Part shown: piece after piece, positions 31,834-51,541 of the stretch
Layout of the letters: every line of letters begins with the position of its first letter
How positions within the stretch are numbered: the first letter of the stretch is position 1
Assembly (NCBI GenBank): GCA_963923945.1
Contig: OZ000551.1
Location: 1,557,580 to 1,621,579 of the forward strand
Origin: Alphaproteobacteria bacterium
GTDB taxonomy: Bacteria; Pseudomonadota; Alphaproteobacteria; G963923945
DNA: 64,000 nucleotides
Direction of reading: 5' to 3'
Notes under the pieces: generated by a model
Databases searched by the model: none
Told to the model about the DNA's origin: nothing
Seen by the model: the letters and a program-made list of their open reading frames with translations, nothing else
Program-made: the position numbers and the translations under genes

Positions 31834-32040
31834 TTAAGGTGCTTTGTTGCTTTGTGTTGCTGTTTTGGCCTTGCCCACTTCATCACCGACATGTTTAAAT
31901 GTCGCCTCGATCGAATCCCCGACACTGGTCATGGCGGCAATCGCGGCAATGGAGATCAAGCCAGCCAGCAAGACATACTCAATGGCCGTGGCACCATTTT
32001 CATTCTTCAGAAGTTTATTCACAAATTTTAACATCGACAT
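31834..32040 (-). CDS. flp: Flp family type IVb pilin (major pilin of the Tad locus)
   Basis: The 68-aa prepilin has a leader MSMLKFVNKLLKNENG, the processing motif G/ATAIEYVLLAGLI and a hydrophobic helix. Confidence 0.8.
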   Translation of the reverse strand: MSMLKFVNKLLKNENGATAIEYVLLAGLISIAAIAAMTSVGDSIEATFKHVGDEVGKAKTATQSNKAP

Positions 32041-32306
32041 TCTCCTTTAAGTCATGTTTTTGACATATGCGGCTTTACGAATCGTTCAGCCTCATAGGGG
32101 TCAGGTAATAAAGAGGATCCAGATACGAACCCCTCCGTATGATGAAAACAATTTAGCCCGATAACATGAAAAAATCGTTATCTCTGCCTGCGCCTGAAGG
32201 GGTATCGGCCCATCTATAAAGGGGTATGAGGACCATACAGCCAAAGAGGTATGGCATGCTTTTTTGGTGATGGTTGGGTGGCGGTGCCCTGGCGCTCAAA
32301 TCTTGG

Positions 32307-32990: not shown

Positions 32991-33037
32991 ATAACCCTAA
33001 TTACCCTAATTGTGGTTCCGCCTTTGACGCCGCCGCA

Positions 33038-33646: not shown

Positions 33647-33761
33647 TCCAGATTAACAAATCAAGGTTAGGGATCACTTAACGCGCCGGTCCATCTTTTG
33701 AATAAAAAGGTCTGCACGAAGGGGCCGTCTTGCAAAAAGAATTAAGACACCGGTCCAATGT

Positions 33762-35018: not shown

Positions 35019-35211
35019 TCCACCCGACCACCATTGATCCAGCGACCTCCTGATAGAAGGCCGTGCCGACTTGTGGTTATGTTAGGGGATGGAATTTACG
35101 GTTTTCTTAAATTGACCTCTTAATTTCCCAACCCTCCCTCTTATGATCCGTATAATCTCCAAGAGACCCCATGCTCAAGAGTTGGGGAGCAGGCCTTGCT
35201 CAACATTCTCT

Positions 35212-35919
35212 TTATAGAGTTTCTCTTGGTGAAGATTCGGCTTGATTTCTTGATGAGGAGCCGGTTTGCCAGGAAAAGTAAAAGCTGGCCAAAACCGCCC
35301 CGATAATTTGGGCGGTGATGAACAACCCAATATCAGCCGGCGCGATGCCGGTGAAACCATCGGTCAAGGCCCGGCCCACAGTCACCGCCGGGTTGGCAAA
35401 AGAGGTTGAGGCTGTAAACCAAATGGCTGCGGTGATATAGCCCCCGACCGCACCAGCGACCGCTTCAGCGCGCCATCGGCCGACAAATAAAATGACCGTG
35501 AGCAACCCGAAAGTGGCCACCATTTCACTGAGGAATTGTCCAAACCCGTTGCGGCTGGTTTGAGAAATTTGCCATAATGATTGATCAAACATGGCATGAA
35601 TGATCAAAACGCCCGAAATACCCCCCAAGATCTGAACCACCATATAGGCGGCCGCCGTACGGGACGTGATTTCTCGCCGCAACGCCATGACCAATGTCAC
35701 CGCCGGGTTGAAATGGCCCCCGGAAACCGGTCCCCAAATGCTAATAAAAACCTGTAGCGCCATGCCGGTCGCCAACGCATTAGCCATCAAGACCAGTGCC
35801 AATACGCCATTAGCCAACTGGCTGCCCATGATTCCAGAACCAACAATCGCCATCAGTAAAGCGGCGGTCCCGCAATATTCAGCCCCCAAGCGGCGGCCGA
35901 GTGTCGTGGTGTTATCCAT
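35212..35919 (-). CDS. MIP family channel (aquaporin/glycerol facilitator)
   Basis: The 235-aa, 6-TM product carries the NPA motif (GGHFNPAVTL) and a second NPA-like box. Confidence 0.85.
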   Translation of the reverse strand: MDNTTTLGRRLGAEYCGTAALLMAIVGSGIMGSQLANGVLALVLMANALATGMALQVFISIWGPVSGGHFNPAVTLVMALRREITSRTAAAYMVVQILGGISGVLIIHAMFDQSLWQISQTSRNGFGQFLSEMVATFGLLTVILFVGRWRAEAVAGAVGGYITAAIWFTASTSFANPAVTVGRALTDGFTGIAPADIGLFITAQIIGAVLASFYFSWQTGSSSRNQAESSPRETL

Positions 35920-36250
35920 GAGTGAAATCTCCGTTTTTTTGCTTTTTTCTAGCTTTTTTCTAAAGTGTTACGGGAAAGATTGAATCTTTGAAAATCCATA
36001 AAAACCAGATCAAAGATAATTGTATCAAAACATATTGATCCATTTTCGCAACCGGATATGAAGGTTGAAACCCGATAGGATGATCAAGCGATGATACAGC
36101 CTTGCCACGGCCGATTGGTGACGCTATCACCCAAGAGGTTTTTTTAAGAGATCATTGCGCCAGAATATGAAAAACCGGCGCGTGAGAAACCAGCTCATCA
36201 CGAGTGAGGCCAACAATGACCAATACAAACCATGACTTCTACGGCCTATC

Positions 36251-37276
36251 ATGACCTATAATGTTGCTGTTGTTGGCGCAACCGGTAATGTTGGGCGCGA
36301 AATTGTGCAAATTTTGGCCGAACGTCAATTTCCGATTGCCGATATTGCGGCCTTGGCTTCCAGCAATTCGGCCGGAAAAGAAATATCCTTCGGGGCCGAT
36401 CGGGTGCTCACGGTGGCGCCTTTGGATGGATATGATTTTTCTCAGACTGATATTGTTCTTTCCTCCCCGGGCAGTAAAGCCGCGGCTGCCTTTGTGCCGC
36501 GTGCGGTTGCGGCTGGGGCGGTGGTGATTGATAATAGTTCGTATTTTCGGATGGAACCGGATGTGCCGCTGGTTGTTCCAGAGGTCAACCCACAGGATAT
36601 CGCCGATTATGGCCAGCGGCATATCATTGCCAACCCGAATTGCTCAACCATTCAAATGGTGATGGCTTTGAAACCGCTTCATGACATGGCACCAATTAAA
36701 CGGGTGGTGGTGGCGACATATCAATCGGTTTCTGGAGCCGGCAAAGCCGCGATGGATGAATTATTCAGCCAAACCCGCAATATTTATGTCAATGATCCGA
36801 TAGAAAAAACCGCCTTTACCAAGCAGATTGCTTTTAATGTCATCCCGCATATTGATGCATTCATGGGCGGGGGCGAAACCAAGGAAGAATGGAAGATGAG
36901 TGTTGAGACTCGCAAGATTCTCGATCCATCAATTGAGGTCATCGCCACTTGTGTCCGGGTCCCGACCTTCATCGGTCATGGTGAGGCGGTTCATGTCGAG
37001 TTCGCCTCACCGATTGATGAAGAGGTGGCGCGTGATCGGTTGAAGAATTTCCCGGGGCTGGTGGTGGTTGATCACCGGGTTGATGAGGGTTATGTCACCC
37101 CGGTTGAGTCTGTGGGTGAGGACGGCGTTTATGTGAGCCGCATACGTATTGATCCAACGGTTGATCATGGTCTGGCGTTTTGGCTGGTTGCCGATAATCT
37201 GCGCAAAGGGGCCGCTTTGAATGCCGTACAAATTGCTGAAATTCTGGCCAAAGATTATCTGGCTGATCGGCGGTGA
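36251..37276 (+). CDS. asd: aspartate-semialdehyde dehydrogenase
   Basis: Contains the NAD-binding motif GATGNVG and the catalytic Cys region NPNCSTIQMV; 341 aa. Confidence 0.9.
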   Translation: MTYNVAVVGATGNVGREIVQILAERQFPIADIAALASSNSAGKEISFGADRVLTVAPLDGYDFSQTDIVLSSPGSKAAAAFVPRAVAAGAVVIDNSSYFRMEPDVPLVVPEVNPQDIADYGQRHIIANPNCSTIQMVMALKPLHDMAPIKRVVVATYQSVSGAGKAAMDELFSQTRNIYVNDPIEKTAFTKQIAFNVIPHIDAFMGGGETKEEWKMSVETRKILDPSIEVIATCVRVPTFIGHGEAVHVEFASPIDEEVARDRLKNFPGLVVVDHRVDEGYVTPVESVGEDGVYVSRIRIDPTVDHGLAFWLVADNLRKGAALNAVQIAEILAKDYLADRR

Positions 37277-37291
37277 TGATGGGTCTACCTC

Positions 37292-37320
37292 GAAAGAGGG
37301 GGGCTGATCCCTCTTAATTT
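37292..37320 (+). terminator. putative terminator after asd
   Basis: Hairpin agagggg-ggctgat-ccctct followed by taattt. Confidence 0.4.
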
Positions 37321-37332
37321 CCGGGGCCATAT

Positions 37333-38874
37333 TTGCAGAAAATTTACCTTATAGAGCCGATAGTGGGCGGTGACGTTCGGCCGCTGATCTGGCCGGTTGT
37401 GAAACTGCCCCAGCCATCGGGTATAGGCTTTGATGAGGTCAAGATGACATCTGCCCAACAGCTTTTAAGGCGTTTGATCTGTTTTCATTTTCTCCGGTTG
37501 GGACGGTCTGAGGAAGGATCAATCGCCATTTATATGTCCATCTCCATCGTTGCGCTGATTGGTCTTGCCGGATTGGCTCTTGACGGTGCACGGGTTTACA
37601 GCGTCAAGACGCGGTTACAAGAATCCCTTGATGCAGCCGCTTTGGCGGCAACCCAGTCGACCGACAAAGAACGCGAAGACACCGCAATCCGCTATTTCCA
37701 CTCCAATTATGGACGTTTTTTAGAAAGTGAACTTAAAGAGCCCGCGACTCGCTACGATGCCCAAGAGCGGGAATTGTCGATGGATGTTGCGGCCACCGTC
37801 CCGGTCACCTTCATGAAGCTGTTCGGCTTTGATGAGGTCACGGTCCGGGTATCGACAACCATCAAACGTCAGATCAGCGAATTGGAGGCCGCCTTGGTGC
37901 TGGATGTGAGCACCAGCATGGGCCAGTACGGGCGAATCGAAAGCCTACGTCAAGCGACCAGAGATTTTATTGATGTCCTGTACGGCAAAGATGATCGCAT
38001 CAATGAAATTCGGGTTTCCATTGTCCCTTATACCGGTTCGGTGAATATTGGGAATGGGTTTAAGAAATGGACAACCCCGCAATGGGAAGATTGGAAAGGC
38101 TGTGTCCATGATCGAGCTGGCTCCTCAAAGGGGGATGCGCCGCCATCAAGTGGGCATTTCAAAACCGATTTTTATCACCCCGAGCATCCCTTCATCCAAT
38201 GGGAGGATCAAGCACGGCGCAAGGGATGGACAAAAACCGGCAAACGAAGCTGGGTGCGCAAAGCCAACGCCGCCGAAGTGATCGCCTCATTGGGGGCCTT
38301 GCGCTTTGTGCCGGAAAAAAATCCCCACACCCATCCGTCTGAAGAGCGTCAATTTTGCACCAGTAGCGTGGTCGAACCATTGCGCAGCAATCGGCCCGCT
38401 TTGCTGAATGATCTGCGGGGAATACAAGCAACCACCAGATATCAAACCTTGCGTAAACCCCCATCGAACGGAACCCGCACTGATCTTGGTTTGCTATGGG
38501 GATGGCGGACCCTTTCACCGCAATGGCGCACTCTATGGTCCGGGAGTCCCCGAGTCACCAATTACCACCAAGATGGGGTGACCAAAGCCGTGGTTCTGAT
38601 GACCGATGGTTCCAACACCGCCAATATCAGCCGCCATCTCACCGCCAACAAGATTGATCAAAACATGGATCGAATTTGTGCCGATATGAAACAAAGAGAT
38701 GGTATTATTGTTTACGTGGTGGCTCTTGAGGTTAAGCAGGCGGCTTTCAAGCAGCGTTTGCGGAGATGTGCTTCCTCGGCTTCGCATTATTTTGAGTCGG
38801 TTTCTCGCGAAGATCTACGCCAAGCTTTTCAAACCGTGGCCAATCAACTGATTGGATTGCGGGTGACCCAATAA
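37333..38874 (+). CDS. second TadG-like vWA-domain pilus protein (paralog)
   Basis: Has the TadG-type N-terminal TM segment (SIAIYMSISIVALIGLAGLALDGARVY) and a vWA MIDAS (LVLDVSTSMGQ). The start is probably downstream of 37333, for example at MTSAQQ (37444). Confidence 0.65.
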   Translation: MQKIYLIEPIVGGDVRPLIWPVVKLPQPSGIGFDEVKMTSAQQLLRRLICFHFLRLGRSEEGSIAIYMSISIVALIGLAGLALDGARVYSVKTRLQESLDAAALAATQSTDKEREDTAIRYFHSNYGRFLESELKEPATRYDAQERELSMDVAATVPVTFMKLFGFDEVTVRVSTTIKRQISELEAALVLDVSTSMGQYGRIESLRQATRDFIDVLYGKDDRINEIRVSIVPYTGSVNIGNGFKKWTTPQWEDWKGCVHDRAGSSKGDAPPSSGHFKTDFYHPEHPFIQWEDQARRKGWTKTGKRSWVRKANAAEVIASLGALRFVPEKNPHTHPSEERQFCTSSVVEPLRSNRPALLNDLRGIQATTRYQTLRKPPSNGTRTDLGLLWGWRTLSPQWRTLWSGSPRVTNYHQDGVTKAVVLMTDGSNTANISRHLTANKIDQNMDRICADMKQRDGIIVYVVALEVKQAAFKQRLRRCASSASHYFESVSREDLRQAFQTVANQLIGLRVTQ

Positions 38875-38966
38875 AAAAGATATCCAATAAAAAACTACTC
38901 AGACCCATTGGCGCCCTTGTTCAGGAAGCCCGAACCGGGCATGATAATCCTCTTTATGTTGCTGAT

Positions 38967-39641
38967 TTGATGTCCCTGGTATGTATGTCTCAGTCCCCAG
39001 AACTTTCCGGCCCTTTTTTGCCGCCTGTTGATGATGGTCCGGTTCAACATTTGGTGGTGTTGCTGCATGGCTATGGAGCCGATGGTCATGATCTGATCGG
39101 GTTGGGCCGGGAATGGGGGCCTGATTTGCCAGGCACCGCCTTTATCTCCCCCCATGCGCCCTCCCCGTGCGCGATGGCCGGTCGGCAATGGTTTCCGTTG
39201 CCAGAAATGAGCATTGAAGTGGCCCGCAACGGTGTCGCGATGGCCCTGCCGATTCTTGACTCTTTCCTTGCTGCCACCTTGCGGGCGCATCGGCTCACTG
39301 TGGGTGATGTTTCCCTGGTTGGTTTTTCACAAGGCGGGATGATGGCTTTGGCTGCCGGTCTGAAACATGCTTACGCGGCGGTCATTTCTTATTCTGGTAT
39401 TTTGGGCCTGGATATGCCGCCAGCACCCCCCGCCTCGGGTTATCCACCGGTTTTATTGGTTCATGGTGATGCCGATCCGGTGGTGCCATCGGCTTCTTTG
39501 GGCTATTCGCGTGATCTTCTTGAAAACTGGGGGATTAGGGTTTGCGCCCATCTGCGCCCGGGTCTGGGGCATGGGATTGATGGTCAAGGATTACGTTTGG
39601 GGCTGGATTTTCTCAGACAAAATAAAAATCAAGGACAATAA
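38967..39641 (+). CDS. alpha/beta hydrolase, phospholipase/carboxylesterase family
   Basis: Contains HGYGADGHDL and the nucleophile elbow GFSQGG; about 224 aa. Confidence 0.7.
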   Translation: MMSLVCMSQSPELSGPFLPPVDDGPVQHLVVLLHGYGADGHDLIGLGREWGPDLPGTAFISPHAPSPCAMAGRQWFPLPEMSIEVARNGVAMALPILDSFLAATLRAHRLTVGDVSLVGFSQGGMMALAAGLKHAYAAVISYSGILGLDMPPAPPASGYPPVLLVHGDADPVVPSASLGYSRDLLENWGIRVCAHLRPGLGHGIDGQGLRLGLDFLRQNKNQGQ

Positions 39642-39841
39642 TCTTATATTGGGTTTGGTGGTCAGGATTGCTTTTATGGTGCAGAGCCTGTCAATCTCTT
39701 ACATGTTGATGGCCTTATCGGAACCCTTTGAATATATTGATCATATCAACAGCATCTATTGAATAAATATAGGGATGAGATAAATATAATCATGAGATAA
39801 ACAAAGAACAAAAAAAAGAATAAAAAAAGAGAGCAAAACCC

Positions 39842-40399
39842 TTGTCGGTTCCTGACCATTGTCCAGCCCTGGTTCTCAATGCTGATTTTCAGCCATTGAG
39901 TTATTTTCCCTTGTCATTATGGTCATGGCAGGATGCCATCAAGGCGGTCTTTTTGGAGCGGGTCAATGTGGTCTCGGAATATGATTATCAGGCTCATTCG
40001 CCCAATCTTTCAATCCGCTTGCCCAGTGTCATCAGCTTAAAACGTTATGTCTCTCTTTCGCGCCAGCCGGCCTTTACCCGGTTCAATGTCTTTTTGCGGG
40101 ATCGATTTTGTTGCCAATATTGCCATCATCTGTTTCAGGCTGAGGAACTCACATTCGATCATCTGGTGCCGCGTTCACGCGGTGGGCGGACCACCTGGAA
40201 TAATGTGGTGACCGCGTGCACGGCTTGTAACTTGCGTAAAGGCAATCGCGCCTTGGCTGAATGCGGTCTCAATCTTAAAACCAGCCCAATTTGTCCGACC
40301 ACCCGCGATTTACAGGAAAAAGGACGGGCCTTCCCGCCCAATTATCTTCATAAGAGTTGGGGGGATTTTCTCTATTGGGATTCCGAATTGGACCCTTGA
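39842..40399 (+). CDS. HNH endonuclease family protein
   Basis: Carries an HNH motif with Cys4 zinc ligands (CQYCHH…FDHLVPRSRGG…NNVVTACTACNLRKG); 185 aa. Confidence 0.75.
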   Translation: MSVPDHCPALVLNADFQPLSYFPLSLWSWQDAIKAVFLERVNVVSEYDYQAHSPNLSIRLPSVISLKRYVSLSRQPAFTRFNVFLRDRFCCQYCHHLFQAEELTFDHLVPRSRGGRTTWNNVVTACTACNLRKGNRALAECGLNLKTSPICPTTRDLQEKGRAFPPNYLHKSWGDFLYWDSELDP

Positions 40400-40929
40400 G
40401 TCACGCTGAGAGAAGCGCCACGGATGCAGAGGAGCATCAAAAACAGCGACAGGACTCCGTTATAAGCGGCCATCGACAGACCCAACAACGACCACGCCAC
40501 TTCATCGCAGCGCACCACCGGTGCCGCCAAGAGAGCGGCCCGCAATGCATCAATCGAGTCCGCCTCCAGCGGGGCCGAACACTCGGCACTTCCGCTCCAC
40601 CAGCCTTGCTCAACCCCGACATGGTTTGCGGCCAACCCCAGCCCGATAAGGGCCGCCACCCCGGCCAGGGTGAAGAGCACCGCCACCATATGATCGGCTT
40701 TCGGGCTATCTCCGGCCTTCCATCGCAGCCAAGCCGCCGCCCCAGCGGTCATAATAATCGCCAGATGCGGCCAACGTTGATCAACGCATAAGGGACAAGG
40801 CCGCAAGCCGCCGACATATTGGGAAAGCAGGGCCGCCGCCAAGGCAACGGCGGATAAACCGGCAACCAATAACGCCAAGAGACGCGGCTCCAATGTGTTG
40901 CCAAACAATTTTTTGATCATGTTGGGCAT
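40372..40929 (-). CDS. dsbB: disulfide bond formation protein B
   Basis: Four TM helices with the CxxC pair (LRPCPLCVDQRW) and a second periplasmic-loop Cys pair. Its 3' end overlaps the HNH gene convergently by 28 nt. Confidence 0.7.
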   Translation of the reverse strand: MPNMIKKLFGNTLEPRLLALLVAGLSAVALAAALLSQYVGGLRPCPLCVDQRWPHLAIIMTAGAAAWLRWKAGDSPKADHMVAVLFTLAGVAALIGLGLAANHVGVEQGWWSGSAECSAPLEADSIDALRAALLAAPVVRCDEVAWSLLGLSMAAYNGVLSLFLMLLCIRGASLSVTQGSNSESQ

Positions 40930-41001
40930 AATTGTTCAGCTGCTCTGGTCAGGCTGTGAGTGAGGGTATGGGGGCCGATTTTTGGATTGTTCGATCATTG
41001 T

Positions 41002-41589
41002 TCAAGCCCCCATCAGCCGACCAATCGCCATGAAGCCGCCAATCAAAATAATCAAAAAGAGGACTGTCACCCAACCCAGCCGTTTTTCCAAAAAGACCTG
41101 CACCGGGGGGCCGAATTTCCATACCAGCCCGGCCACAAGAAAAAATCGCGCACCCCGCGATGCCAGAGCCGCCAGGCAGAAAACCGCTAAATTGAGATCA
41201 ACCACGCCGCTGGCGATGGTTACAACCTTGAACGGGATCGGTGTGAAGCCGCCAACCGCCACAATCCAGGCTCCGTATTGGGTGTAGAGGTCCTGAAAAT
41301 TTTGAAATTCACTGCTGTAATGATAAAAATCGAGCAAAGGACGGGCCACCGTTTCAAAGAACAGAAAACCGATCCCATACCCCAATAATCCCCCGGCGAC
41401 CGAGGTGAGCGTACACAGGGCGGCATAACGCCATGCCCGGTCCCGGCGGGCCAGGACCATCGGGATCAATAAGACATCAGGGGGTATGGGAAAAACCGTG
41501 CTTTCGGCAAAGCTCACCCCCGCCAATGCCGTCCCGGCCCGGCGGTGACCGGCCAGACGCAAAGTCCAATTATAGAGTTTTGCCATCAT
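41002..41589 (-). CDS. YqaA/DedA family membrane protein
   Basis: The 195-aa product has conserved DedA-type re-entrant motifs (VFPIPPDVLLIPMV…GFTPIPFKV). Confidence 0.7.
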   Translation of the reverse strand: MMAKLYNWTLRLAGHRRAGTALAGVSFAESTVFPIPPDVLLIPMVLARRDRAWRYAALCTLTSVAGGLLGYGIGFLFFETVARPLLDFYHYSSEFQNFQDLYTQYGAWIVAVGGFTPIPFKVVTIASGVVDLNLAVFCLAALASRGARFFLVAGLVWKFGPPVQVFLEKRLGWVTVLFLIILIGGFMAIGRLMGA

Positions 41590-41818
41590 AAGAACGGCAT
41601 AACAGCCTTTGCCCGAGGCGTCCAGAATTCAACCTTTCTTTTGCCAATAAAACAGCCCAATAAAACAACCAGGAATGCCCAAGCTTGATTGCTTCAAACG
41701 CATGGTCCTTAAAAGCCACGATGATGCAACCGAATCTGGACAACAGGTGGTGGGCTGTTTACTCTGCTTATGTATTGAGATACCCATAAATGAATTGCAT
41801 GGGTTGAAAATCTCTCGT

Positions 41819-41905
41819 GCGGATGTGGCGGAATTGGTAGACGCGCCAGACTCAAAATCTGGTGGGGGCAACTCCGTGAGAGTTCGAGTCTCTCCATCCG
41901 CACCA
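41819..41905 (+). tRNA. tRNA-Leu (anticodon CAA)
   Basis: Folded by hand: acceptor GCGGATG/CATCCGC, D-arm GCGG…ACGC, anticodon stem CCAGA/TCTGG with loop CTCAAAA, a long class II variable arm, T-arm GAGAG-TTCGAGT-CTCTC, and an encoded CCA. Confidence 0.9.
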
Positions 41906-42062
41906 TTGCCCAATTTCCGGCGTTGGTGCAGTGTTGGGTATTGCTCTTGGCCTCGCGATGGCTGTTTTGTGCATCTGTTTCGCCCAATGGGATGATTGAT
42001 TGTGCCGATGCCATTTCCGCTATTTTGCGATGGCGCGTTGCCTCGTAATTGATTTTTCCGGA

Positions 42063-42806
42063 TCATCCATCAATATCAGGCGGCGGGATGTATTGAGGTG
42101 GGTCGTGATCGCCGCGCAGCCGGGCCTCGAAGATCATTTTCAGGGTTTTCCAACTGAACTTTAACAAGAACCCAAAACGTATGGTGCCGGAGCTGGCGTC
42201 CGATTGCGGCGTCAATGTGACCGGCACTTCTGTATAAGTCTCCAATATTGAAAAGAGTCGAATCAGGCTGACCTCGTGATAGCGATAGTCCTTTGGGAAC
42301 GAAATTGACCGGGCCGCGCTGACCGGCCAAACAAAAAGACTATGTCCATCGCGAATGGGACACCGGGTGGCAAGCCGTATAAGCCGGGTGCAGATGATCG
42401 ATAGCAGTCGGCGCAGAGGTTCCCGCTCTTGCATATTGTGTCGATAGGAAATCACCATATCCGCTGCTCCAGCCGCTTTGAAAACCGCAGCGACACCGGA
42501 TGCCTCGAAGGCTTTGTCTCCAGGAATGAGGGTTATGAATGGGTGAGTGGCTCTGGCGAGTGCTGCAGCGTAAGCCGCACCGACGCCTTGATTGGTAGGG
42601 TGATGGATGACGTCAACTTCATCGTACTGGGTTGCCAACAATTCACTGACCGTGTCCGTGCCATCGCTGCTGCCGTCATTCACAATGATCAATTCGAACG
42701 CCTCTAAATGATCCCGGGCGGCAGAAAGAGCTTCTTCAACCGTGCTTCGCAAGCGGTCCGCCTCGTTATAGGCTGGCACGACAATGGTTACGGATGCTCT
42801 ATTCAC
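42063..42806 (-). CDS. family 2 glycosyltransferase (DPM1/GtrB-like soluble catalytic domain)
   Basis: Has the N-terminal motif VVPAYNEADRL, a DXD-like box (IVNDGSSDGT) and GVGAAY; 247 aa. Confidence 0.8.
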   Translation of the reverse strand: MNRASVTIVVPAYNEADRLRSTVEEALSAARDHLEAFELIIVNDGSSDGTDTVSELLATQYDEVDVIHHPTNQGVGAAYAAALARATHPFITLIPGDKAFEASGVAAVFKAAGAADMVISYRHNMQEREPLRRLLSIICTRLIRLATRCPIRDGHSLFVWPVSAARSISFPKDYRYHEVSLIRLFSILETYTEVPVTLTPQSDASSGTIRFGFLLKFSWKTLKMIFEARLRGDHDPPQYIPPPDIDG

Positions 42807-43371
42807 AAGAGACCTGCGTCACGGTTTGTTATCTTTTGACTTGATCTTGCGCAGATATGGCAACACAATACCGGAAATAACGGACATGAGTTTGCGCCTG
42901 CGGGGAACCCGAACCGATGCTGAGCCCATCTCGGCCATCGTGTCCCGCGCGAAGGGAAATCCGTGGTGTGCCAGGTGCTGATGGCCTTTTTCATCCTGTA
43001 GATATGTATGTGCGCCCAGAAAGTTGGCCCGCCCGGCACCAATGGGTTGCTGCGAGTAGGCCTTGGTCTGAATATCCGTCAACGATGGCGGCAGAGAATC
43101 CCGATGGAAGCTCAAATAAAACAATTGTAGAATCCAACATGGCGGTGTATCACTTTCTCTTCAAGAATGGACGGCAATTCGATACTGCCATGATATGCCG
43201 CTCCTTGGGAACCATGGCCAGCCTTCCTGCACCTGCGCTCCAACAAAATCAATATCACACCTGAACCAACGCCAAATCGGTTATCCATCATGCTGATGCG
43301 GCGATAAACTGCGATTGGCTTGCAATAATTTTTAATGCAGAAATGCGAAGACACAGAATAACCCCCCCAAA

Positions 43372-44949
43372 ATGCATCAAAAATTCAATAAATACACCAG
43401 TATATATGTTCTTTTAGTGACGTTTTTACTGTTGTTTTGTGCTTTTGCCACAGCGAAATATTTGGGTCTCAACAAAGCTGATCCGACAAATCGCCTCATG
43501 CATCATGCGATGCCGGTGGCGATGTCGGTACTTTATCAAGGTTGGCCATTCGATTATACCGCAAACAGAGCCTTGGCAATGAAATTTCGCATGTATGAAG
43601 GAGCGCACGAACCGAAAGTTGGATTTACAAGTATTGACCAACTCATCGAAAAATTGAAGGATACTTCATTCGATAAAAGCCAAACATATTTTTGGGTTGT
43701 CGACGATAAAGGATTAGGACTTTACGCCATTATCGCGGGGGCAATATTTGGCCTGAGTCTGAACGGACTTTTTTTATTTTACTTTTTTATCATAGGAGCA
43801 AGTTCGCTCCTTTTCATATATGGAAATAAAAACAGTAAAGAAAACGTCATCATTCTTTATTCTTATCTCGCAGCTTTATGTTTTTTGATTCCAATTTTTA
43901 TTTTTTTGAGTGTCTCGAATCCCGGTCAAGCAATTCATATCAGCGAAGCCCGATTGTTTGGAATGCTCTCAATCCTGCCTATTGTGCATTTGTTTCTTTT
44001 CGGGATTCAAAAAAGAGAAATCCATTCACATGAGATGATCGCGGTCATCGGTCAAGTCATTATCTTTATATTTTTACTGCATATTCGGTCCTCTATGACT
44101 GGTCAAATGGGCATTTTGGTGCTTGCGGTCTTATTATTTGGATGCCGTAGCATAAGAATGAGAAACTGGAACATCAGAGCCATTATTTCCGCAGTGAGTC
44201 TGGTTTTCGCGGTCACTGTGGCCTTGCCGTTATTTGAAAGAATTTTCTTCCACGATCATTATTTCGGAAATTCCGGCCAAAGAACCATATGGCATAATGC
44301 TGTTATGGGACTCGCTTATAATACTCATTTCAAGAAAAATTACTGTTTGGGAGTCGATGATTGGAAATCAGCGCTTGCTGTTTTGAAATATAAATATGGA
44401 ATTGAATTCACCAAAAAAACCGCATGTGATTCCAATCCAAAACTTGATGAGGAAGTCAATACGGCGATGAAATCTATTGGAAATGTAGCAGAGTATAACT
44501 GGGAAGAACATGAAAGAACGGCCAGAAATTTAGTTTTTTCATTACTGCAAAAATACCCGAGAGAAGGTATAGAATTATTTTTTTATAATAAACCAATGAG
44601 TATTTTTTATGAAATAAAAGGTTATTTTCGCAATCTTCAAAATATACTGATGAAAGATCTCGGATTATTATTACTTCTTTCTTCTGGTTTTTTGGTGATG
44701 ATTTTTGGAAGTTTTTTGTTGAGTTTTGTTTTTTTATCTGAAAATTTTAAAGTGAATGTTTTTCCAATAGTTTTTTTCATGGGGATTTTGACAATAGGGG
44801 GAGGTATTCCTCCGTTTTTGTTCTATCCAGCCCTTTCGTCGGTGGCCGGCATTATTCTTTCATTGGCTTTGCTGGTGTTTTTTTGTTTGTCCTTTCTTTC
44901 GGCCATGTTTGGATACAAAATGGCATCTGCGAAAAAAGCCGCCGGATAA
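43372..44949 (+). CDS. low-GC polytopic membrane protein, possible O-antigen ligase/Wzy-type polymerase
   Basis: The 525-aa product has more than 10 predicted TM helices and a large loop containing GNSGQRTIWHNAV, which resembles the Wzy_C SxRxxxW signature. Its codon usage is conspicuously more A/T-rich than the neighbours. Confidence 0.45.
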   Translation: MHQKFNKYTSIYVLLVTFLLLFCAFATAKYLGLNKADPTNRLMHHAMPVAMSVLYQGWPFDYTANRALAMKFRMYEGAHEPKVGFTSIDQLIEKLKDTSFDKSQTYFWVVDDKGLGLYAIIAGAIFGLSLNGLFLFYFFIIGASSLLFIYGNKNSKENVIILYSYLAALCFLIPIFIFLSVSNPGQAIHISEARLFGMLSILPIVHLFLFGIQKREIHSHEMIAVIGQVIIFIFLLHIRSSMTGQMGILVLAVLLFGCRSIRMRNWNIRAIISAVSLVFAVTVALPLFERIFFHDHYFGNSGQRTIWHNAVMGLAYNTHFKKNYCLGVDDWKSALAVLKYKYGIEFTKKTACDSNPKLDEEVNTAMKSIGNVAEYNWEEHERTARNLVFSLLQKYPREGIELFFYNKPMSIFYEIKGYFRNLQNILMKDLGLLLLLSSGFLVMIFGSFLLSFVFLSENFKVNVFPIVFFMGILTIGGGIPPFLFYPALSSVAGIILSLALLVFFCLSFLSAMFGYKMASAKKAAG

Positions 44950-45289
44950 CTCGACATTCTTGCTGTCTGTCCGGGGAAAAAGGGAAAGTGAGCGGCACAT
45001 TCTTGCCGATGCCTGTGGTTTGCTGATGCGTTTTTTAATGCATACCGCTGACTGGCAGAATCATGGTGGTGGTGTCATGGTGGTGGGGGTATTATTCCGT
45101 CAGTTTCTTTTCCTGTTGAAGCGGTATACCAAGAGCGGCTATCAAGGTGACCGGTTTGAGAGTGGGGTGAAAAAATCTCATCGCCGAGTCAATGCTGGGA
45201 CCATTAAATTCTCGGACCAAGTTGAAAAATTCTCTGCGCCGCCGGAACGCTGGATTGTCGAGCGCGCCTTTGCCTGGTTTGGCGACTAA
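44909..45289 (+). pseudogene. C-terminal remnant of a DDE transposase (IS5/IS4 superfamily, DDE_Tnp_1-like)
   Basis: The ORF ends …PPERWIVERAFAWFGD*, matching the conserved C-terminal ERWxVERTFAWL motif of IS5-family transposases. I see no N-terminal catalytic region or inverted repeats. Confidence 0.5.
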
Positions 45290-45348
45290 TGTTGGAAAGC
45301 CAGAATCGCGCATTCATAAAAGCATCCTGCTCATAGAAGCGCCATATA

Positions 45349-46395
45349 ATGGGTTATAATGCGTTTACAATGAGTTCGAATGTTCAATTTGTTGTGAAGA
45401 TTGTGATTGTCATCGCGGTGTTCGGTGTCATTTTGATGTCGGTCGACCGCGACATGCTTTTCAATACAATCAGCAAAGTGACGCCCGCAACCTATCTCAT
45501 CTTGATTGGCATGGTGTTTGTTCAAGCGGGATTTTTAGGCTACCGTTGGCATCTTATAACCCGGCAGGTTGGGGGTGTTTTGCCTATTGGGTCCAGTTAC
45601 TCCGGCACCCTTGTCAGTTTCTTCTTTTCACAAGGTTTGCCGTCATCCGTAGGTGGAGACGTTCAGCGAATATGGTGGCTTAAGGCGCGCCATGACATTC
45701 CGGTTGGCCAAGCAGCCCGCAGCGTCCTGCTTGATCGGGTCGCTGGGCTGGTTTCGCTTCTCATTCTTTGTGCTGTCAGTGTCGTGCTGTTGGAAAGACG
45801 GGTCGATAGTGAGATTTTTGACCGGCTCGGTACCCTTCTTATGATCACCATCGCAGGCGGATTGGGCATACTGGCACTGGCGGTGGTGCCGTTTCGCTAT
45901 GGAGTCTCTCAATGGCTGCGCACCCTTTCGGATCGAATGCCCAAACGATTCAGCCAATTCTTGCTCTGGCTGGTGGCGTTTCGCGAGAACTTTGTGGGGT
46001 TGCGCCCGGGGCCGGCCACCGCGATTATGCTTATTGGTGTGACGATTCATTTGGTGAGCGTGGCGTTGGGTTATGTGGTTACCCGAGACTTGGTGCTGGG
46101 TCTGACATTTCTTGATTGTGTGGCTTTGATCGCGCCGGCATTGTTGCTGAGCTATTTGCCGATTTCGATCGCTGGCTGGGGGGTGCGAGAAGCGTCCTTG
46201 ATCGGTGCGTTCAGCTTGATGGGTGTGTCGCTGGAAGCCGGATTGACGGTTTCTCTGATCCTCGGATTCAGCTTCCTGATCACATCGCTTTTCGGGGGAT
46301 TGCTGTGGCTGTTTAGCGGGGCTCGGGGCACTTGGGTCCGTGGTGGTGGAACGGCACTGACCAAACCGGAAACGCCGCCGCTGTCAAGGCAGTAG
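45349..46395 (+). CDS. flippase-like / lysylphosphatidylglycerol-synthase-TM-domain (UPF0104) membrane protein
   Basis: The 348-aa product has about 8 TM helices and a conserved Arg-rich loop (QRIWWLKARHDIPVGQAARSVLLDRVAGL). Confidence 0.55.
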   Translation: MGYNAFTMSSNVQFVVKIVIVIAVFGVILMSVDRDMLFNTISKVTPATYLILIGMVFVQAGFLGYRWHLITRQVGGVLPIGSSYSGTLVSFFFSQGLPSSVGGDVQRIWWLKARHDIPVGQAARSVLLDRVAGLVSLLILCAVSVVLLERRVDSEIFDRLGTLLMITIAGGLGILALAVVPFRYGVSQWLRTLSDRMPKRFSQFLLWLVAFRENFVGLRPGPATAIMLIGVTIHLVSVALGYVVTRDLVLGLTFLDCVALIAPALLLSYLPISIAGWGVREASLIGAFSLMGVSLEAGLTVSLILGFSFLITSLFGGLLWLFSGARGTWVRGGGTALTKPETPPLSRQ

Positions 46396-46402
46396 CATTG
46401 CA

Positions 46403-46915
46403 ATGGAATTCGTCCCTGCTTTTTCGGTCTGGACCGCTCTGAGCGGGCTGGTGTTTCTTCCTGTTTTGTTGGCACTTCTCGCGCGACCCCCTTTCAAACT
46501 TCGGCCGCCGGGGCGGCGGTTCCAATTATCGGCCCTGATCATCTTCATCAGTTGGGCGGCGGCCCAATTCACCCAAGATGCCCCTGAAAGCCAAGACCTC
46601 TTGATTGGCGGTATTCTCCTCACCGGTGGCCTGCTCTGCGCCTCTACTCTTTGGACTCTTTTGGCATGGGGCTTTACGGTCTTCTTGCTGCTGGCCCTGG
46701 CCGGGAACCGTGATGCCCCGTCATTGGATGATTGGATTGCCCGCTACACGGCGGGGCGAGGCGTGACCATGTTCACCCGGGATAGGGCCGGGGTTCTGCT
46801 GCGATTCGGTTTGGCCCGGGTGGTCGATGGTCGATTTCGGATCACCGACTGGCCGGGACGCAAAGTTTTGGCAGCGGCGCGCCTGGTCGCCAGAATCTTC
46901 GGAATTGCCCTATGA
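46403..46915 (+). CDS. membrane protein with C-terminal winged-helix-like domain (paralog A)
   Basis: The 170-aa product has 3-4 TM helices and a C-terminus RDRAGVLLRFGLARVVDGRFRITDWPGRKVLAAARLVARIFG. It is coupled to the upstream gene by an 8-nt gap and to the downstream gene by an ATGA overlap. Confidence 0.4.
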   Translation: MEFVPAFSVWTALSGLVFLPVLLALLARPPFKLRPPGRRFQLSALIIFISWAAAQFTQDAPESQDLLIGGILLTGGLLCASTLWTLLAWGFTVFLLLALAGNRDAPSLDDWIARYTAGRGVTMFTRDRAGVLLRFGLARVVDGRFRITDWPGRKVLAAARLVARIFGIAL

Positions 46916-47457
46916 CCGGTGAAGCCGCATCCTTCGGGCTGGGTTTCATGAGCCTGTTTGTCCATGTTGCTGTGACGTTGGGGTTGCTGTGGACCCTTCG
47001 TGATCGGTCACCGGTCATACTTCAATTATTCTCCGCATTGATTGCCGAGACCCTGTTTGTTGCTGTTGGTTTGATTATTGATCCGGTGATCGATTTTTGG
47101 ATTGGCAGCGTTATGATTGGATTTGGCGCGGTGCTCCTGCTGTTTGTTCATTCAGCCTTGTACAAGTCGGTATCATTGCGCATGTTGGCCGCGCTGGCCA
47201 GATCCCCTGACCCTGAGACCGATATTCATAGGATCAGCGAAGAGGTTACCCGGCCGTTATTTGCTGACCGGGTGGGGGTTTTGATAGAGATGGGATATGT
47301 CTGCGTAGAGCGGCGATGCGGCATGGAATGCTATGCGGTTACCGAGGCCGGCCAGCACTTCGTCGCCCGGTTGGCCGGGGTTCAACGGCTATTTGGCGTT
47401 GATGCCAACGGCTTTTATGACTCAGGACCAAACAACCGCCGACAACGTGATCTCTAA
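46912..47457 (+). CDS. membrane protein with C-terminal winged-helix-like domain (paralog B)
   Basis: The 181-aa product has 3 TM helices and a C-terminus ADRVGVLIEMGYVCVERRCGMECYAVTEAGQHFVARLAGVQRLFG. That region aligns position-by-position with paralog A (xDRxGVLxxxGxxxVxxR…YxxTxxGxxxxARLxxxxRxFG). Confidence 0.4.
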   Translation: MTGEAASFGLGFMSLFVHVAVTLGLLWTLRDRSPVILQLFSALIAETLFVAVGLIIDPVIDFWIGSVMIGFGAVLLLFVHSALYKSVSLRMLAALARSPDPETDIHRISEEVTRPLFADRVGVLIEMGYVCVERRCGMECYAVTEAGQHFVARLAGVQRLFGVDANGFYDSGPNNRRQRDL

Positions 47458-47546
47458 ATCCTGGCACTCCAGCATATTGAGAGTTTTGGCGGGCACCATC
47501 ACCCCATCGCCGGTTGAGGACATCTATAATACCAGACCGGCATCAC

Positions 47547-49091
47547 TCATTTCTCAATCACCGCTTTGTGATAGCCGCCGATTTTGGCCAGGTTATTGAG
47601 GGATTGGGAAACAGTATCTTCGGGTAAAGGAAACGCGGTATCGGTGATTTTCAGCTTCACAACCTCTTTTTCAACCATCAGATGGCTCTGCTTGAAAAAA
47701 GTCTTGATCCCTCCGGAAGCTTGATACGCCAGATGAAGAGCCGCCCCGCATAAAGCGGCTTGGTGCACTCCATCGCCGCCCAGCAAGGATGTGATACCCG
47801 AGGCGACGTGATCGGACATTTGGCCACCATAGCGAATAAAAACAGCCAGAGCGATATAGGCCCGTCCGGGATGATCAATTCCATAAAGCGGCATCCATAA
47901 TATATGTTGCAAGGCTTGGACAGCCCGATAATCGGAATATTCTTGCCAAGCAATGTCGGAAAAACAGCACGCGGCCAGCCGCAGACGTTGCTTTTCTGGA
48001 TCGACATTGCTGCCGAATAAGGGGGCAATCCATTGTTCCAAGACCGGCCCCAATCGACCAAAACGGCCAAAGCGTTCCTCATATTCCAGAGCCATGCTTT
48101 CCAGAGGATCTTGGGCCAAAATGGCCGCCGGGAGATTATTCAAGAGACAGCCTTCGCGTAATCCGGTCGATGGAAAAACCACGCCCGCCGGTTTCATGCG
48201 TTGCAAAATAATAGTCAAAATGCTGGCTGCATAAGGTAAGATTTCAACCCGACGGCTGGGAATCCCTTTGATTCCAGACAAGGATTGCCGACTTTGGCGG
48301 CTGATCAATCGGACCAAATTATCAATATCCCGGGTCGCGGCTTGATATCCTTGGAGCAACCGCAATGGATAATTCCTATGGGCCATATGCAGACGTGCAA
48401 ACACCCGCCACGCCCCGCCAATCGCATAGAAATTCTGGCCCTGATGATCTTGGAGAAAATCAGCCTTTTTCAATTCTTTTCTGATCAGACGATGAATCTT
48501 GGCTTGATGCGCATCCCCGCGGTCAGCCAGTCGCAACGGTCCGATGGGTAAGGAAACAACCGCCCCGACTTTGTGATTCTCCAAGACCGCCAATTCCAAA
48601 CTGCCGCCACCCAAATCACCGGCAATCCCAGAGGCCTGAGGGCAAGAGGCCAGAACCCCGGTGGCGGCCAGCCGACCTTCCTCGGCCCCGGTCAAAACCC
48701 GCACCCGGTGCGAGAAAATCTGCTCGACCCGGTCGACGAATACAGCACCATCCTTTGCTTCACGTACCGCAGCAGTGGCCAGAATATCCAATCTCTCAAC
48801 CGCCATCGCCTGGATGATCATCACAAAGCGTTGCAGGGTCTCCAAGGCCGCAACCACACCGTGTGGATTGAGCAATCGGGTGGTTTGCAGACCGCGTCCC
48901 AAGCCGCAAATAGAGCGTTCGTTGAACAAAACACCCGGAACCCGACCCAAGCCATCATAAATGACCAAGCGGACCGAGTTGGAGCCGATATCAATAATCC
49001 CGACCCGCTTTTGTGCTTGTTTCTGTGATCTCTTCTCAAAAAGAGGGAAAACAGGCCGAAACTGCTGAGAAAGGGAAAAAATTGATGGCAT
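47547..49091 (-). CDS. ppx: exopolyphosphatase / guanosine pentaphosphate phosphohydrolase (Ppx/GppA family)
   Basis: The 514-aa product has the ASKHA-fold N-terminus (VGIIDIGSNSVRLVIY) followed by an HD-like C-terminal domain. Confidence 0.85.
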   Translation of the reverse strand: MPSIFSLSQQFRPVFPLFEKRSQKQAQKRVGIIDIGSNSVRLVIYDGLGRVPGVLFNERSICGLGRGLQTTRLLNPHGVVAALETLQRFVMIIQAMAVERLDILATAAVREAKDGAVFVDRVEQIFSHRVRVLTGAEEGRLAATGVLASCPQASGIAGDLGGGSLELAVLENHKVGAVVSLPIGPLRLADRGDAHQAKIHRLIRKELKKADFLQDHQGQNFYAIGGAWRVFARLHMAHRNYPLRLLQGYQAATRDIDNLVRLISRQSRQSLSGIKGIPSRRVEILPYAASILTIILQRMKPAGVVFPSTGLREGCLLNNLPAAILAQDPLESMALEYEERFGRFGRLGPVLEQWIAPLFGSNVDPEKQRLRLAACCFSDIAWQEYSDYRAVQALQHILWMPLYGIDHPGRAYIALAVFIRYGGQMSDHVASGITSLLGGDGVHQAALCGAALHLAYQASGGIKTFFKQSHLMVEKEVVKLKITDTAFPLPEDTVSQSLNNLAKIGGYHKAVIEK

Positions 49092-49360
49092 GGAAAACGA
49101 CGCGTATGCAAAAGCGGGAAGTCTTCTCTTTTCGTTGAGAATTTTCCTCGGTGTGGTGAGAATTTTTTTAATTCAGTGAGAATTTTTCTTGATCAAGTAC
49201 AGTCTTCAATCAGGATGATTCATCTTCAAGGGTGGCTCATTTCTTGGTCAGTGATTGAGAATCAGTCTGATATCGTGACCTTGTATGGTGATTTTAGTCT
49301 ATTGCAGAACTGAAGAACGGCGAGGCGGGGTTGAAAACCCAAAATGCGATTCGACTTTTT

Positions 49361-51541
49361 CTACCCGGTCCTTAAGGAGAGGTGGGCGACCGTATGATCA
49401 TTTTTTAAGGCACTGCCACGTCCCGATAAGCTCGGATTGGTCATGAAATATTGATGGGCGGAAAAACCGGCTTTACCGGCGTCAAAACGCCGATAGCTGC
49501 CATCGGCCTGCAAGGCCCAACTCTGTTCATGATCATTCAGGTTGGCGATCATGACTTGATTCATGACTTGTTGTTTCACGGTGGCGTTTTCGATCGGCAC
49601 CATGACCTCGACTCGTCGATCAAGATTGCGTTTCATCCAATCGGCGGATGATATATAAACCGCCGCTTCCGGGTCTGGCAGACCTTTGCCGTCACCAAAG
49701 CAAAAGACCCGGCTGTGTTCCAAAAAGCGTCCAATGATGCTTTTGACCCGAATTGTTTCTGAAAGCCCAGAAATTCCCGGCCTCAAGCAACAGATACCAC
49801 GGACAATCAGATCAATCTCGACCCCGGCTTGGGATGCCTTATACAGGGCCTCAATGATTTCCCGATCGACCAGGGCATTCATTTTGGCCCAAATCGCTGC
49901 CGGACGACCGGCTTGGGCATGGTCGATTTCAGCATGAATATGGTTGAGCAGGCTTTCGCGCAAGGTAAATGGGGCAACCGCGATTTTTTCCATCTTCTCA
50001 GGCTTGGCATAGCCGGTCATGAAGTTGAACATTTTACCCGCATCCCGACAAAATGCCGGATCAGCGGTAAAAAAGGACAGATCAGTATAAATTTTGGCGG
50101 TCAGCGGATGATAATTACCGGTGCCAAAATGGATATAAGAACGCAGATTGTCCCCCTCACGGCGCACCACCAAGGACACCTTGGCATGGGTCTTTAATTC
50201 GATGAAGCCGTAAACCACCTGGACCCCGGCCCGTTCCAAATCCCGGGCCCAGCGGATATTGCGTTCCTCATCAAAACGGGCCTTCAACTCGACCAGAGCG
50301 GTGACCGACTTTCCGGACTCAGCGGCCTCAATCAGAGCCGCAACAATGGGAGAATTTTCACCCGTGCGGTAAAGGGTTTGCTTGATCGCCACCACCGCCG
50401 GATCACGCGCGGCCTGACGGATGAATTGAACAACAACATCAAAACTTTCATAAGGATGGTGAACAATAATATCTTTTGTCCGAATGGCGGCCAGGCAGTC
50501 ACCACCAAAATCGCGGATACGTTCGGGAAAACGGGCACTATAGGGGGTGAATAAAAGATCATGACGCTCATCAGTGATCAGATTTAGGATATCGGATAAA
50601 CCAACAACACCGCTGGTGTGGTAAGCCGATTCGGCATCAACCGCCAATTCTTCAACCAGGAAATTTTGCAAAGATTCCGGCATGCCTTCATTAACGCCCA
50701 AGCCAATGACAACACCGCGTCGACGCCGCTTCAAGGCACTCTCAAAAGAGCTGGCCAAGTCTTCGGCTTCTTCCTCTATCTCCAAGTCACTGTCTCGAAT
50801 GACCCGAAAAACCCCGTAAGACACCACCCCCATACCCGGAAACAAGCTGTCGAGAAAGAGGCTGATGGCATCTTCCAGCAAAATAAAGCGGCTTTCCTCT
50901 CCAGGCAGGCGGATAAAACGGTCCAGATAATTGGGCAACGGAATAATACCATTGAAGGGGTCGGTCTCTTTGGGGCGCAGCAGCTGAACCGCCAGGCTCA
51001 GACCAAGATTGGGGATAAAAGGAAAAGGATGGGCCGGATCGATGGCAATCGGGGTGAGAACTGGGAAAATGTCGGCCATGTAACGGGCGTGTAACCACTG
51101 CCGATCATCCACGTCCAGTTCTTTGGGTCCGAGAACCGCAATGCCTTGTCCCCGCATTTCTTGTTTGAGTTCTTCCCAACAGGCATCTTGCCGGGCCAGT
51201 AAATCATCAATCCCGGTATCGATTTCTTTTAATTGCTGGGCTGGAGTCCGGCCATCAAGGCTGGTCTGGGTGATTCCCTCGCGGACCATCTCCTTAAGAC
51301 CGGCCACTCTGACCATGCGAAATTCATCAAGATTGCTGCCCGAGATGGATAGGAATCGAATCCGTTCCAGCAATGGATGGGCGCGATTGGCCGCTTCCTC
51401 CATCACCCGAAGATTGAACGCCAACCACGATAATTCACGATTGATGTAACGTTCCTCGGGCCGTGACAAATCCATTCCCGACGGCGATTCAGCCGGTGAT
51501 GATTCTTCAGCTGGGGTTAGAATTTTGGCAACACGGCTCAT
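49361..51541 (-). CDS. ppk: polyphosphate kinase 1
   Basis: The 726-aa product has the PPK1 N-domain ([21 protein letters not shown]) and two PLD-like HKD regions. Confidence 0.95.

Follow-up and report, generated by a model that had tools for sequence, protein, structure and literature searches.

The interval between the gene for tRNA-Leu(CAA) and the exopolyphosphatase gene (ppx) of an alphaproteobacterium (contig OZ000551.1, positions 1,557,580 to 1,621,579, this whole stretch of 64 kb being referred to as the window) raises the question of whether it is a genomic islet integrated at the 3' end of the tRNA or a functional unit of another kind. It contains five genes, encoding a soluble GT2 glycosyltransferase, a 525-aa polytopic membrane protein (p525), a flippase-like protein of 348 aa (flip348), and two small membrane proteins (p170 and p181). 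On balance, these genes probably constitute a compact, intact system for glycosylation outside the cytoplasm and not a tRNA-integrated island. They are best read as a lipid-linked-sugar glycosylation system of the Gtr/Arn type, reduced in size and equipped with an unusual flippase; acting on the outer face of the inner membrane, it most likely attaches a sugar to a polysaccharide of the cell surface. The features of the interval and its boundaries are the following:

41819-41905, plus strand: tRNA-Leu(CAA), left neighbour of the module (ARAGORN; Rfam RF00005, 62.7 bits)
42063-42806, minus strand: GT2 glycosyltransferase, 247 aa (PF00535)
42837-43082, minus strand: probable IS256-family transposase remnant (BLAST)
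43372-44949, plus strand: p525, 525-aa polytopic membrane protein, predicted GT-C glycosyltransferase (alignment, fold model)
44966-45283, plus strand: dead IS5-family transposase fragment (NCBIfam NF033580, tblastn)
45349-46395, plus strand: flip348, flippase-like protein of the MprF/UPF0104/PplT type, 348 aa (PF03706, TIGR00374)
46403-46915, plus strand: p170, small membrane protein (orthologues in relatives)
46912-47457, plus strand: p181, small membrane protein (orthologues in relatives)
47547-49091, minus strand: ppx, right-hand housekeeping boundary (PF02541 and PF21697)

The association of these genes is conserved elsewhere. The six metagenome contig families with the closest flip348 homologues (33-47% identical) were inspected, and in all six, two small genes, the orthologues of p170 and p181, come after the flip348-like gene. 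Among the closest homologues, those of 40-47% identity always have two small genes after them. The p170 orthologues (31-46% identical) lie directly after the flippase gene in the metagenome contigs labelled L081, L082, L084, L086, L087, and L088, and the p181 orthologues (28-39% identical) keep the same position in six contigs. In four of the six, a p525 homologue is adjacent to this trio or separated from it by one gene, namely in L082 (32% identity to p525, E 4e-79), L086 (27%), L087 (27%), and L088 (25%), and an orthologous GT2 gene adjoins the trio, in convergent orientation, in L081 (51%) and L088 (47%). The linkage of a GT-C protein, a GT2, and the flippase trio was retrieved from seven unrelated metagenome contigs, including two fusion architectures among the p525-family proteins. 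In one of these (P0146), an N-terminal GT2 domain, 47% identical to the GT2 of the window, is followed by a p525-family domain; in the other (P0172), found on at least four contigs, the p525-family domain comes first and the GT2, 40% identical to that of the window, is C-terminal. Both fusion genes directly adjoin a flippase-like gene and two small genes. The neighbouring genes in the relatives code for sugar-nucleotide epimerases/dehydratases, sugar C-methyltransferases, NUDIX, ManC/PGM, Wzy_C, and UbiA-HAD proteins, and an ABC-2 transporter, indicating a polysaccharide-cluster context. The alignments of the five proteins of the window with their homologues cover almost the full length, and the proteins contain no internal stops and thus look intact, the GT2 gene being located on the opposite side of p525 relative to the relatives.

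In L086 (12537-15266) and L087 (13785-17845), a Wzy_C gene and a UbiA-HAD fusion come after the module, with an additional FAD_binding_4 gene in L087. This set resembles the polyprenyl-phosphoribose or DprE1-type pathway for pentofuranose donors, so that two lipid-linked-sugar branches may run side by side in these two clusters.

The p525 protein, with about 12 helices, belongs to a family for which an exhaustive HMMER search retrieved 453 cluster representatives at E <= 1e-3 and 57 at E <= 1e-30; where the source names them, the relatives are called "hypothetical protein". A word-indexed protein search yielded a single p525 homologue, missing the 32% identical one of L082, and a rerun with the family alignment added none. 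Neither p525 (searched to E <= 10) nor any of its 66 aligned relatives (together the 67-sequence set) matched a Pfam or NCBIfam model, and a search of the family profile against PDB sequences returned no match. AlphaFold2, provided with the 67-sequence alignment, produced a model with a predicted local distance difference test score (pLDDT) of 90.9 and a predicted template modelling score (pTM) of 0.92, compared with a pLDDT of only 43.7 for a single-sequence run, and the top Foldseek matches to this model were ArnT and DPY19 (probability 0.82-0.84). According to this model, p525 is a protein of the class-A GT-C fold, from a family without a Pfam model. The hallmark of class-A GT-C enzymes is an acidic motif in the first outward loop. 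In p525, the aspartates D111, D112, and D117, at least 90% conserved in the 67 sequences, are located between helix 1 (residues 2-30) and helix 2 (residues 114-126). Further conserved residues lie in or near a large loop (residues 293-395), namely R194, R239, R304, W307, H308, N309, D330, and E381, with R304, W307, and N309 at least 90% conserved and H308 invariant in the family. All invariant and near-invariant family residues are retained by p525, which is predicted to be a periplasm-facing glycosyltransferase using a lipid-linked sugar; the linkage of its family to GT2 genes and the GT2 fusions within the family point to a polyprenyl-phosphate-linked sugar as the probable donor.

The GT2 protein matches PF00535 (E 2e-21), and its longest matches to solved structures are with ArnC (residues 5-149); it is predicted to be a polyprenyl-phosphate sugar synthase making the lipid-linked donor. 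The match of flip348 to PF03706 covers the full length (E 1.6e-35; 123.4 bits versus a cut-off of 33.4; profile positions 2-302 of 302), and TIGR00374 is matched as well. The role predicted for this protein is translocation of the lipid-linked sugar through the inner membrane, and the gene context suggests a polyprenyl-phosphate sugar as its cargo. No GtrA or MATE protein is present in the module, and the PF03706 protein and the two small membrane proteins take that position. For p170 and p181, no Pfam or NCBIfam match was obtained at E <= 0.1, the sole listed match being that of p181 to an EarA-like model (E 0.28). The p170 gene is the conserved partner of the flippase gene and codes for a protein with a soluble C-terminal domain of about 70 aa, and p181 is translationally coupled to p170 via an ATGA overlap. 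As read from their sequences, each of the two has three to four membrane helices and a soluble C-terminal domain of about 70-100 aa. A weak similarity was found between p181 and p170 (E 0.015), and p170 cross-matches the p181 orthologue of L082 (E 2.9e-4); the two look like distant paralogues that may stem from an ancient tandem duplication.

Periplasmic glycosylation by three components, consisting of a lipid-sugar synthase, a flippase, and a GT-C enzyme, has been described (PMC11127046), and archaeal UPF0104 proteins, encoded beside a GT2 and a PMT/STT3-like enzyme, have been predicted to be glycosylation flippases (PMC5898192). From the family and fold assignments, the gene association, and the fusions observed here, we infer a mechanism in three steps for the module of the window. 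Using a nucleotide sugar as the source, the soluble GT2 would attach a sugar to polyprenyl (undecaprenyl) phosphate at the inner membrane face. The MprF/UPF0104-type protein would then move the lipid-linked sugar to the periplasmic face, a step in which p170 and p181 probably help. Lastly, p525 would transfer the sugar to a surface glycan, for instance lipopolysaccharide/O-antigen or exopolysaccharide, by means of the acidic pair D111-D112 in the first loop together with the cluster of R304, W307, H308, N309, and D330 in the large loop.

The same logic of synthase, proposed flipping, and GT-C transfer underlies Gtr-type O-antigen glucosylation (GtrA/GtrB/Gtr*) and the GT136 pentofuranose systems (PMC11127046), and the GT-C gene is the variable and compositionally deviant component in the Gtr-type systems as well as in the module. 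Unlike in those systems, the putative flippase is of the 8-helix-class MprF/UPF0104 type, accompanied by two small proteins, instead of GtrA/SMR-like or MATE; the GT2 is devoid of membrane helices; a phage context is absent; and the GT-C family has neither a Pfam model nor a sequence link to solved structures. Compared with ArnC/ArnE-F/ArnT, no sequence similarity of p525 to ArnT or PMT_2 was detected, the locus contains no Arn sugar-nucleotide enzymes, and the flipping component is different. The neighbourhoods of archaeal AglD and UPF0104 proteins display the same triad of a GT2, a UPF0104 protein, and a PMT/STT3-related GT-C enzyme (Makarova et al. 2015, PMC5898192). The archaeal triad serves S-layer N-glycosylation and its GT2 is often fused to the UPF0104 domain, whereas the module is bacterial, its GT2 fuses, if at all, to the GT-C protein, two extra small proteins are conserved, and the clusters are O-antigen-like. 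Finally, flip348 shares a full-length PF03706 domain with the MprF flippase domain, PplT (YbhN), and GpgF. The known or proposed cargos of those proteins are aminoacyl- or glycosyl-phospholipids, while the cargo proposed for the module follows from its gene context.

Fragments of insertion sequence (IS) elements, one of them probable, occur on both sides of the p525 gene, which is thus bracketed by two truncated elements. The spacer between the GT2 and p525 genes (42807-43371, 565 bp) contains only overlapping open reading frames (ORFs) of 101 aa (minus strand) and 115 aa (plus strand), for which no Pfam (E <= 10) or NCBIfam match was found. Within this spacer, bases 43082-42837 (minus strand) match the N-terminal residues 19-112 of an IS256-family transposase (E 1e-4, tblastn against 7.3 Gb of plasmids). 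The plasmid matches comprised 27 Bradyrhizobium records; for two of the eight listed, the matched region carries the annotation IS256 family transposase. According to its annotation, the H9 gene encodes a 427-aa IS256-family transposase, and the reciprocal tblastn gave 34% identity (E 2e-7). The remnant lies inside the ORF 42819-43124 and ends about 30 bp before the GT2 start. It is a probable IS256-family scar, an assignment made with moderate confidence, as it has no support from hidden Markov models (HMMs). By eye, the spacer had also been suspected to be a frameshifted S-adenosylmethionine (SAM)-dependent methyltransferase pseudogene, such a gene being present upstream of GT2 in L088 and L082. 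This candidate was rejected, since the methyltransferases of L088 and L082 gave no tblastn match in the spacer, no Pfam match was found at E <= 10, and the spacer matched the IS256 N-terminus instead.

On its other side, the p525 gene is separated from the flippase gene by a spacer that is occupied by an IS5-family fragment, the corresponding spacer in L087 being only 48 bp long. The fragment lies within the ORF 44909-45289 and matches positions 122-228 of 258 of NCBIfam IS5_3 (NF033580; E 3.7e-9). In tblastn, positions 44966-45283 corresponded to residues 143-245 of an OrfAB of about 281 aa (47% identity, E 1e-25), and the fragment is 47.6% identical to IS copies on Bradyrhizobium plasmids (E 2e-24). 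The catalytic-region aspartate of 'YADGGYQG' reads K ('YTKSGYQG'). No orfA match was found in the whole window, nor were IS-type terminal inverted repeats. A possible read-through of this fragment past its stop toward about 45380 was seen by eye and is not claimed. In the unrelated contig L091, an IS66-family transposase fragment (DDE_Tnp_IS66_C; 12449-12739) directly follows the module, so that IS elements adjoin it elsewhere too. As to the history of the locus, the module sits in large polysaccharide clusters in the relatives; here, an IS256-family and an IS5-family element would have inserted next to p525, and later deletions, ending no more than about 20-60 bp from the ends of genes, would have truncated both elements and removed neighbouring genes, leaving the five genes intact.

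Composition was scored on 50 genes of the window, with outliers expressed as robust z. The p525 gene is the strongest outlier among them, with a GC content of 0.370 versus a median of 0.527 (z -7.3) and a GC content at third codon positions (GC3) of 0.367 versus 0.558 (z -3.9). Maximum-likelihood change points at about 43320 and 44795 delimit the lowest-GC 1.7-kb block of the window. The genes for GT2, flip348, p170, and p181 have a normal GC content (0.535-0.598). In synonymous-codon likelihood, the bottom three of the 50 genes are those for GT2, flip348, and p170, the chance that all three fall within a set of five genes being about 5e-4 by our own calculation; low codon likelihoods also occur in genes for membrane proteins outside the block (dsbB and dedA). 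The remaining low-GC stretches of the window (16.7-17.4 kb and 31.1-31.6 kb) are non-coding and intergenic. At 31080-31640, about 560 bp of extremely A/T-rich DNA without an ORF, where 1-kb windows fall to a GC content of 0.33, matching p525, form part of the tad pilus locus and lie downstream of a short gene on the minus strand (about 31850-32040), which we take to encode a Flp-type pilin. The A/T-rich intergenic block at 16750-17380 (1-kb GC content of about 0.37) contains only short nonsense ORFs and is flanked by a gene for a cytochrome oxidase subunit II-like protein (15832-16740, minus strand) and tldD/pmbA (17386-18867, plus strand).

The low GC content of the p525 gene has counterparts in the relatives. 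In every contig examined (L081, L082, L086, L087, and L088), the GC content of the cluster is lowest in the gene at the p525 position, with values of 0.459 versus 0.59-0.68 for the cluster in L088, of 0.48-0.49 versus 0.55-0.59 in L081, and a smaller dip in L082, L086, and L087. Since low GC recurs in unrelated contigs, it characterises the slot itself and is more than a sign of recent import. Proteins of 593 aa and 445 aa without detectable similarity to p525 occupy the slot in L081, so that the slot appears to be exchangeable. Low GC is likewise recurrent in wzy, wzx, and gtrC. The p525 slot, presumably specificity-determining, is compositionally deviant and probably exchanged between lineages.

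Comparison with related genomes was carried out with the ppk gene, which was searched among 185,579 species representatives (GTDB). The best match (68% identity) was with Rhodospirillales-like alphaproteobacterial metagenome-assembled genomes. In the 80 ppk loci compared, all of them alphaproteobacterial, the adjacency of ppk and ppx was kept in 76, and only ppk-ppx and a histidine-phosphatase gene were in common with the window. At these distances (ppk identity of at most 68%), tRNA-Leu, dedA, dsbB, and any gene of the interval were absent within 10 kb in all 80 loci. A metagenome scan with ppx yielded no closer relative, and all proteins of the interval were singleton clusters at 90% identity, originating from one 2.10-Mb contig. 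The best ppk match and the singleton proteins indicate an alphaproteobacterial lineage that is deeply isolated and has a small chromosome (2.1 Mb) as the source of the window.

The main elements of this layout had already been given by the sequence-only reading, and all the sequence features that it listed were confirmed. The tRNA-Leu(CAA) was confirmed by ARAGORN and Rfam. The GT2 gene reported after it is present, encoded on the minus strand and convergent with tRNA-Leu, and its product has no recognisable membrane anchor. The markedly A/T-rich gene for a 525-aa polytopic protein was found at 43372-44949 (plus strand) and is a true outlier in both GC and GC3, the IS5-superfamily transposase C-terminal remnant was borne out by NF033580 and tblastn, and the coupled membrane operon consists of three genes (45349-46395, 46403-46915, and 46912-47457) with a 7-bp gap followed by a 4-bp overlap. 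The spacer of roughly 560 bp indeed holds short ORFs, although these were not all that it contained, the probable IS256 scar lying inside it. At the right end of the interval, ppx and ppk are convergent with the membrane operon.

Several points weigh against a polyprenyl-linked glycosylation system with the history proposed above. The matches of the GT2 to ArnC, PpgS, and AglJ are partial and far below equivalog cut-offs, and the protein has no membrane anchor or C-terminal helices such as those of GtrB/ArnC-type enzymes. The p525 family, the two small proteins, and the GT2 subgroup are known solely from sequence and model; the D111-D112 loop is the putative first extracytoplasmic loop of that model. 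No O-antigen or exopolysaccharide cluster is present in the 64-kb window, and BLAST, at 34% identity, is the sole source of the IS256 assignment. Lastly, the experimentally studied UPF0104 systems (MprF and GpgSDF) act on glycerolipids, not on polyprenyl-linked sugars (PMC12713373; bioRxiv 10.1101/2022.03.11.483950). The latter point leads to the strongest alternative for steps one and two, a GpgSDF-type glycolipid system, in which GT2 and flip348 would make and flip a glycosylated glycerolipid in a GpgSDF/HexSDF-like manner, either as an end product or as the p525 donor, with no polyprenyl carrier. The characterised or partly characterised UPF0104 systems, acting on phospholipids or glycolipids (PMC12713373; bioRxiv 10.1101/2022.03.11.483950), and the GT2 without C-terminal membrane helices speak for it. 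Yet the solved GT-C enzymes matched by p525 all use polyprenyl- or dolichyl-phosphate-linked donors (in part established knowledge), GpgS belongs to GT4 and not to GT2 (PMC12713373), and the neighbourhoods of the relatives are polysaccharide clusters, not lipid-synthesis operons, so that we consider a glycerolipid system unlikely. A different role has to be weighed for p525, which could be a Wzy-type polymerase or WaaL-type ligase (GT-C class B) acting on undecaprenyl-diphosphate-linked repeat units. The Wzy_C-like SxRxxxW loop noted in the sequence-only reading is present (S301, R304, and W307), with R304 and W307 conserved, and the conserved R304-x-x-W307-H308-N309 in the large periplasmic loop bears a superficial likeness to the R...HN motifs that ligases and polymerases have. 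Low GC is, moreover, typical of Wzx/Wzy-style genes. Members of the Wzy_C family (PF04932) and p525 are alike in being polytopic, in having a large periplasmic loop with conserved Arg and His, and in being encoded by low-GC genes. The scaffold, on the contrary, is that of class-A GT-C and not of WaaL; WaaL appeared among the Foldseek matches at rank 8 with a probability of 0.16, against 0.84 for ArnT, and PF04932 was matched neither by p525 (E <= 10) nor within the 67 family members. In addition, L086 and L087 carry a separate Wzy_C gene beside the p525 homologue, and the fusion with GT2 fits a pair of donor synthase and transferase. A polymerase or ligase function of p525 is the least probable of the alternatives weighed here, and a low-GC polytopic membrane gene beside a GT2 should not be annotated as Wzy by default.

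With respect to the origin of the locus, a classical genomic islet would imply that the whole block of 42.0-47.5 kb entered as one unit at the 3' end of tRNA-Leu by site-specific integration, as the sequence-only reading had proposed. The block adjoins a tRNA and has IS scars, the p525 gene is a GC outlier, three of the genes have the lowest codon likelihoods, and the module is not found beside ppk-ppx in the 80 alphaproteobacterial loci. Nevertheless, these loci are too distant to be informative, tRNA-Leu, dedA, and dsbB also being absent there, and the low codon likelihood is shared by dsbB and dedA outside the block. All ORFs of at least 100 aa in 41.6-49.2 kb were accounted for, and no integrase or recombinase was among them. 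No tRNA-derived repeat was found when the 3' half of tRNA-Leu was compared with 41950-50000 and 30000-41800, the best local alignment in the former (9.5) falling below the mean of shuffled queries (10.0 +/- 1.1), in agreement with the lack of a direct repeat that had been reported for the far boundary; a general repeat search yielded no relevant repeat family either. Without an integrase and a tRNA-derived repeat, tRNA-targeted integration is unsupported, and nothing shows that tRNA-Leu was used as an attachment site. The composition shift that had been claimed for the islet holds for the p525 gene and not for the other four genes, with their normal GC, and the same dip in the relatives removes low GC as evidence of recent import. 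Integration of the whole block as an islet is therefore improbable. The evidence on horizontal acquisition of the interval is mixed, since the GC of p525, the IS scars, and the lowest codon likelihoods speak for a foreign origin or for unusual expression. Of the horizontally acquired surface-glycan cassette that had been suggested, the glycan-modification cassette, the IS scar, and the deviant p525 gene remain, and the tRNA integration and the recent import deduced from GC do not. The two truncated IS elements, together with the methyltransferase and sugar-nucleotide genes missing here compared with the relatives, the relocated GT2 gene, and the lack of an acceptor-synthesis cluster nearby, could also mean that the locus is the decaying, functionless remainder of what was once a larger polysaccharide cluster, in a genome reduced to 2.1 Mb. 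Against this stand the five ORFs, full length compared with their homologues and free of internal stops, every invariant and near-invariant residue kept by p525, and the preserved coupled start/stop arrangement of the operon, and a functionless relic is accordingly quite improbable, slightly more so than the islet.

The rest of the 64-kb window consists of housekeeping genes, including those for cytochrome oxidase, threonine synthase, the tad pilus locus, asd, ppk/ppx, and gltBD. An Rfam scan returned no element besides the tRNA, and scans for promoters and terminators were not informative (11 and 15 sites versus 7.7 and 8.6 expected). An ORF for an HNH endonuclease (39842-40399, plus strand) is convergent on dsbB (40372-40929, minus strand), overlapping its 3' end by 28 bp; this lone HNH gene amid housekeeping genes could be a further trace of a mobile element.

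Periplasmic "post-polymerisation" glycosylation sets the O-antigen serotype, the availability of phage receptors, and immune recognition. To our knowledge, proof of the flippase step has yet to be obtained for any known system of this kind. The glycosylation module proposed here offers a new, testable candidate for this step, consisting of an MprF-type protein with two obligate small partners, associated with a GT-C enzyme and a GT2, and it adds an unclassified GT-C family to the catalogue. It also illustrates that the low GC content of a specificity gene, recurring as it does in the same slot, is no proof of recent island insertion. It is quite possible, if somewhat short of probable, that the five genes represent a widespread undescribed bacterial system, comprising a new GT-C family (about 450 cluster representatives and no model in Pfam or CAZy), a dedicated GT2 donor synthase, and a translocation unit in which an MprF/UPF0104-type flippase is joined by two small paralogous membrane proteins with soluble C-terminal domains. 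If so, a polyprenyl-phosphate sugar would for the first time be the cargo of an MprF-type flippase in bacteria, and the window would hold the system in its smallest self-sufficient version, cut down to the core by deletions that IS elements mediated.

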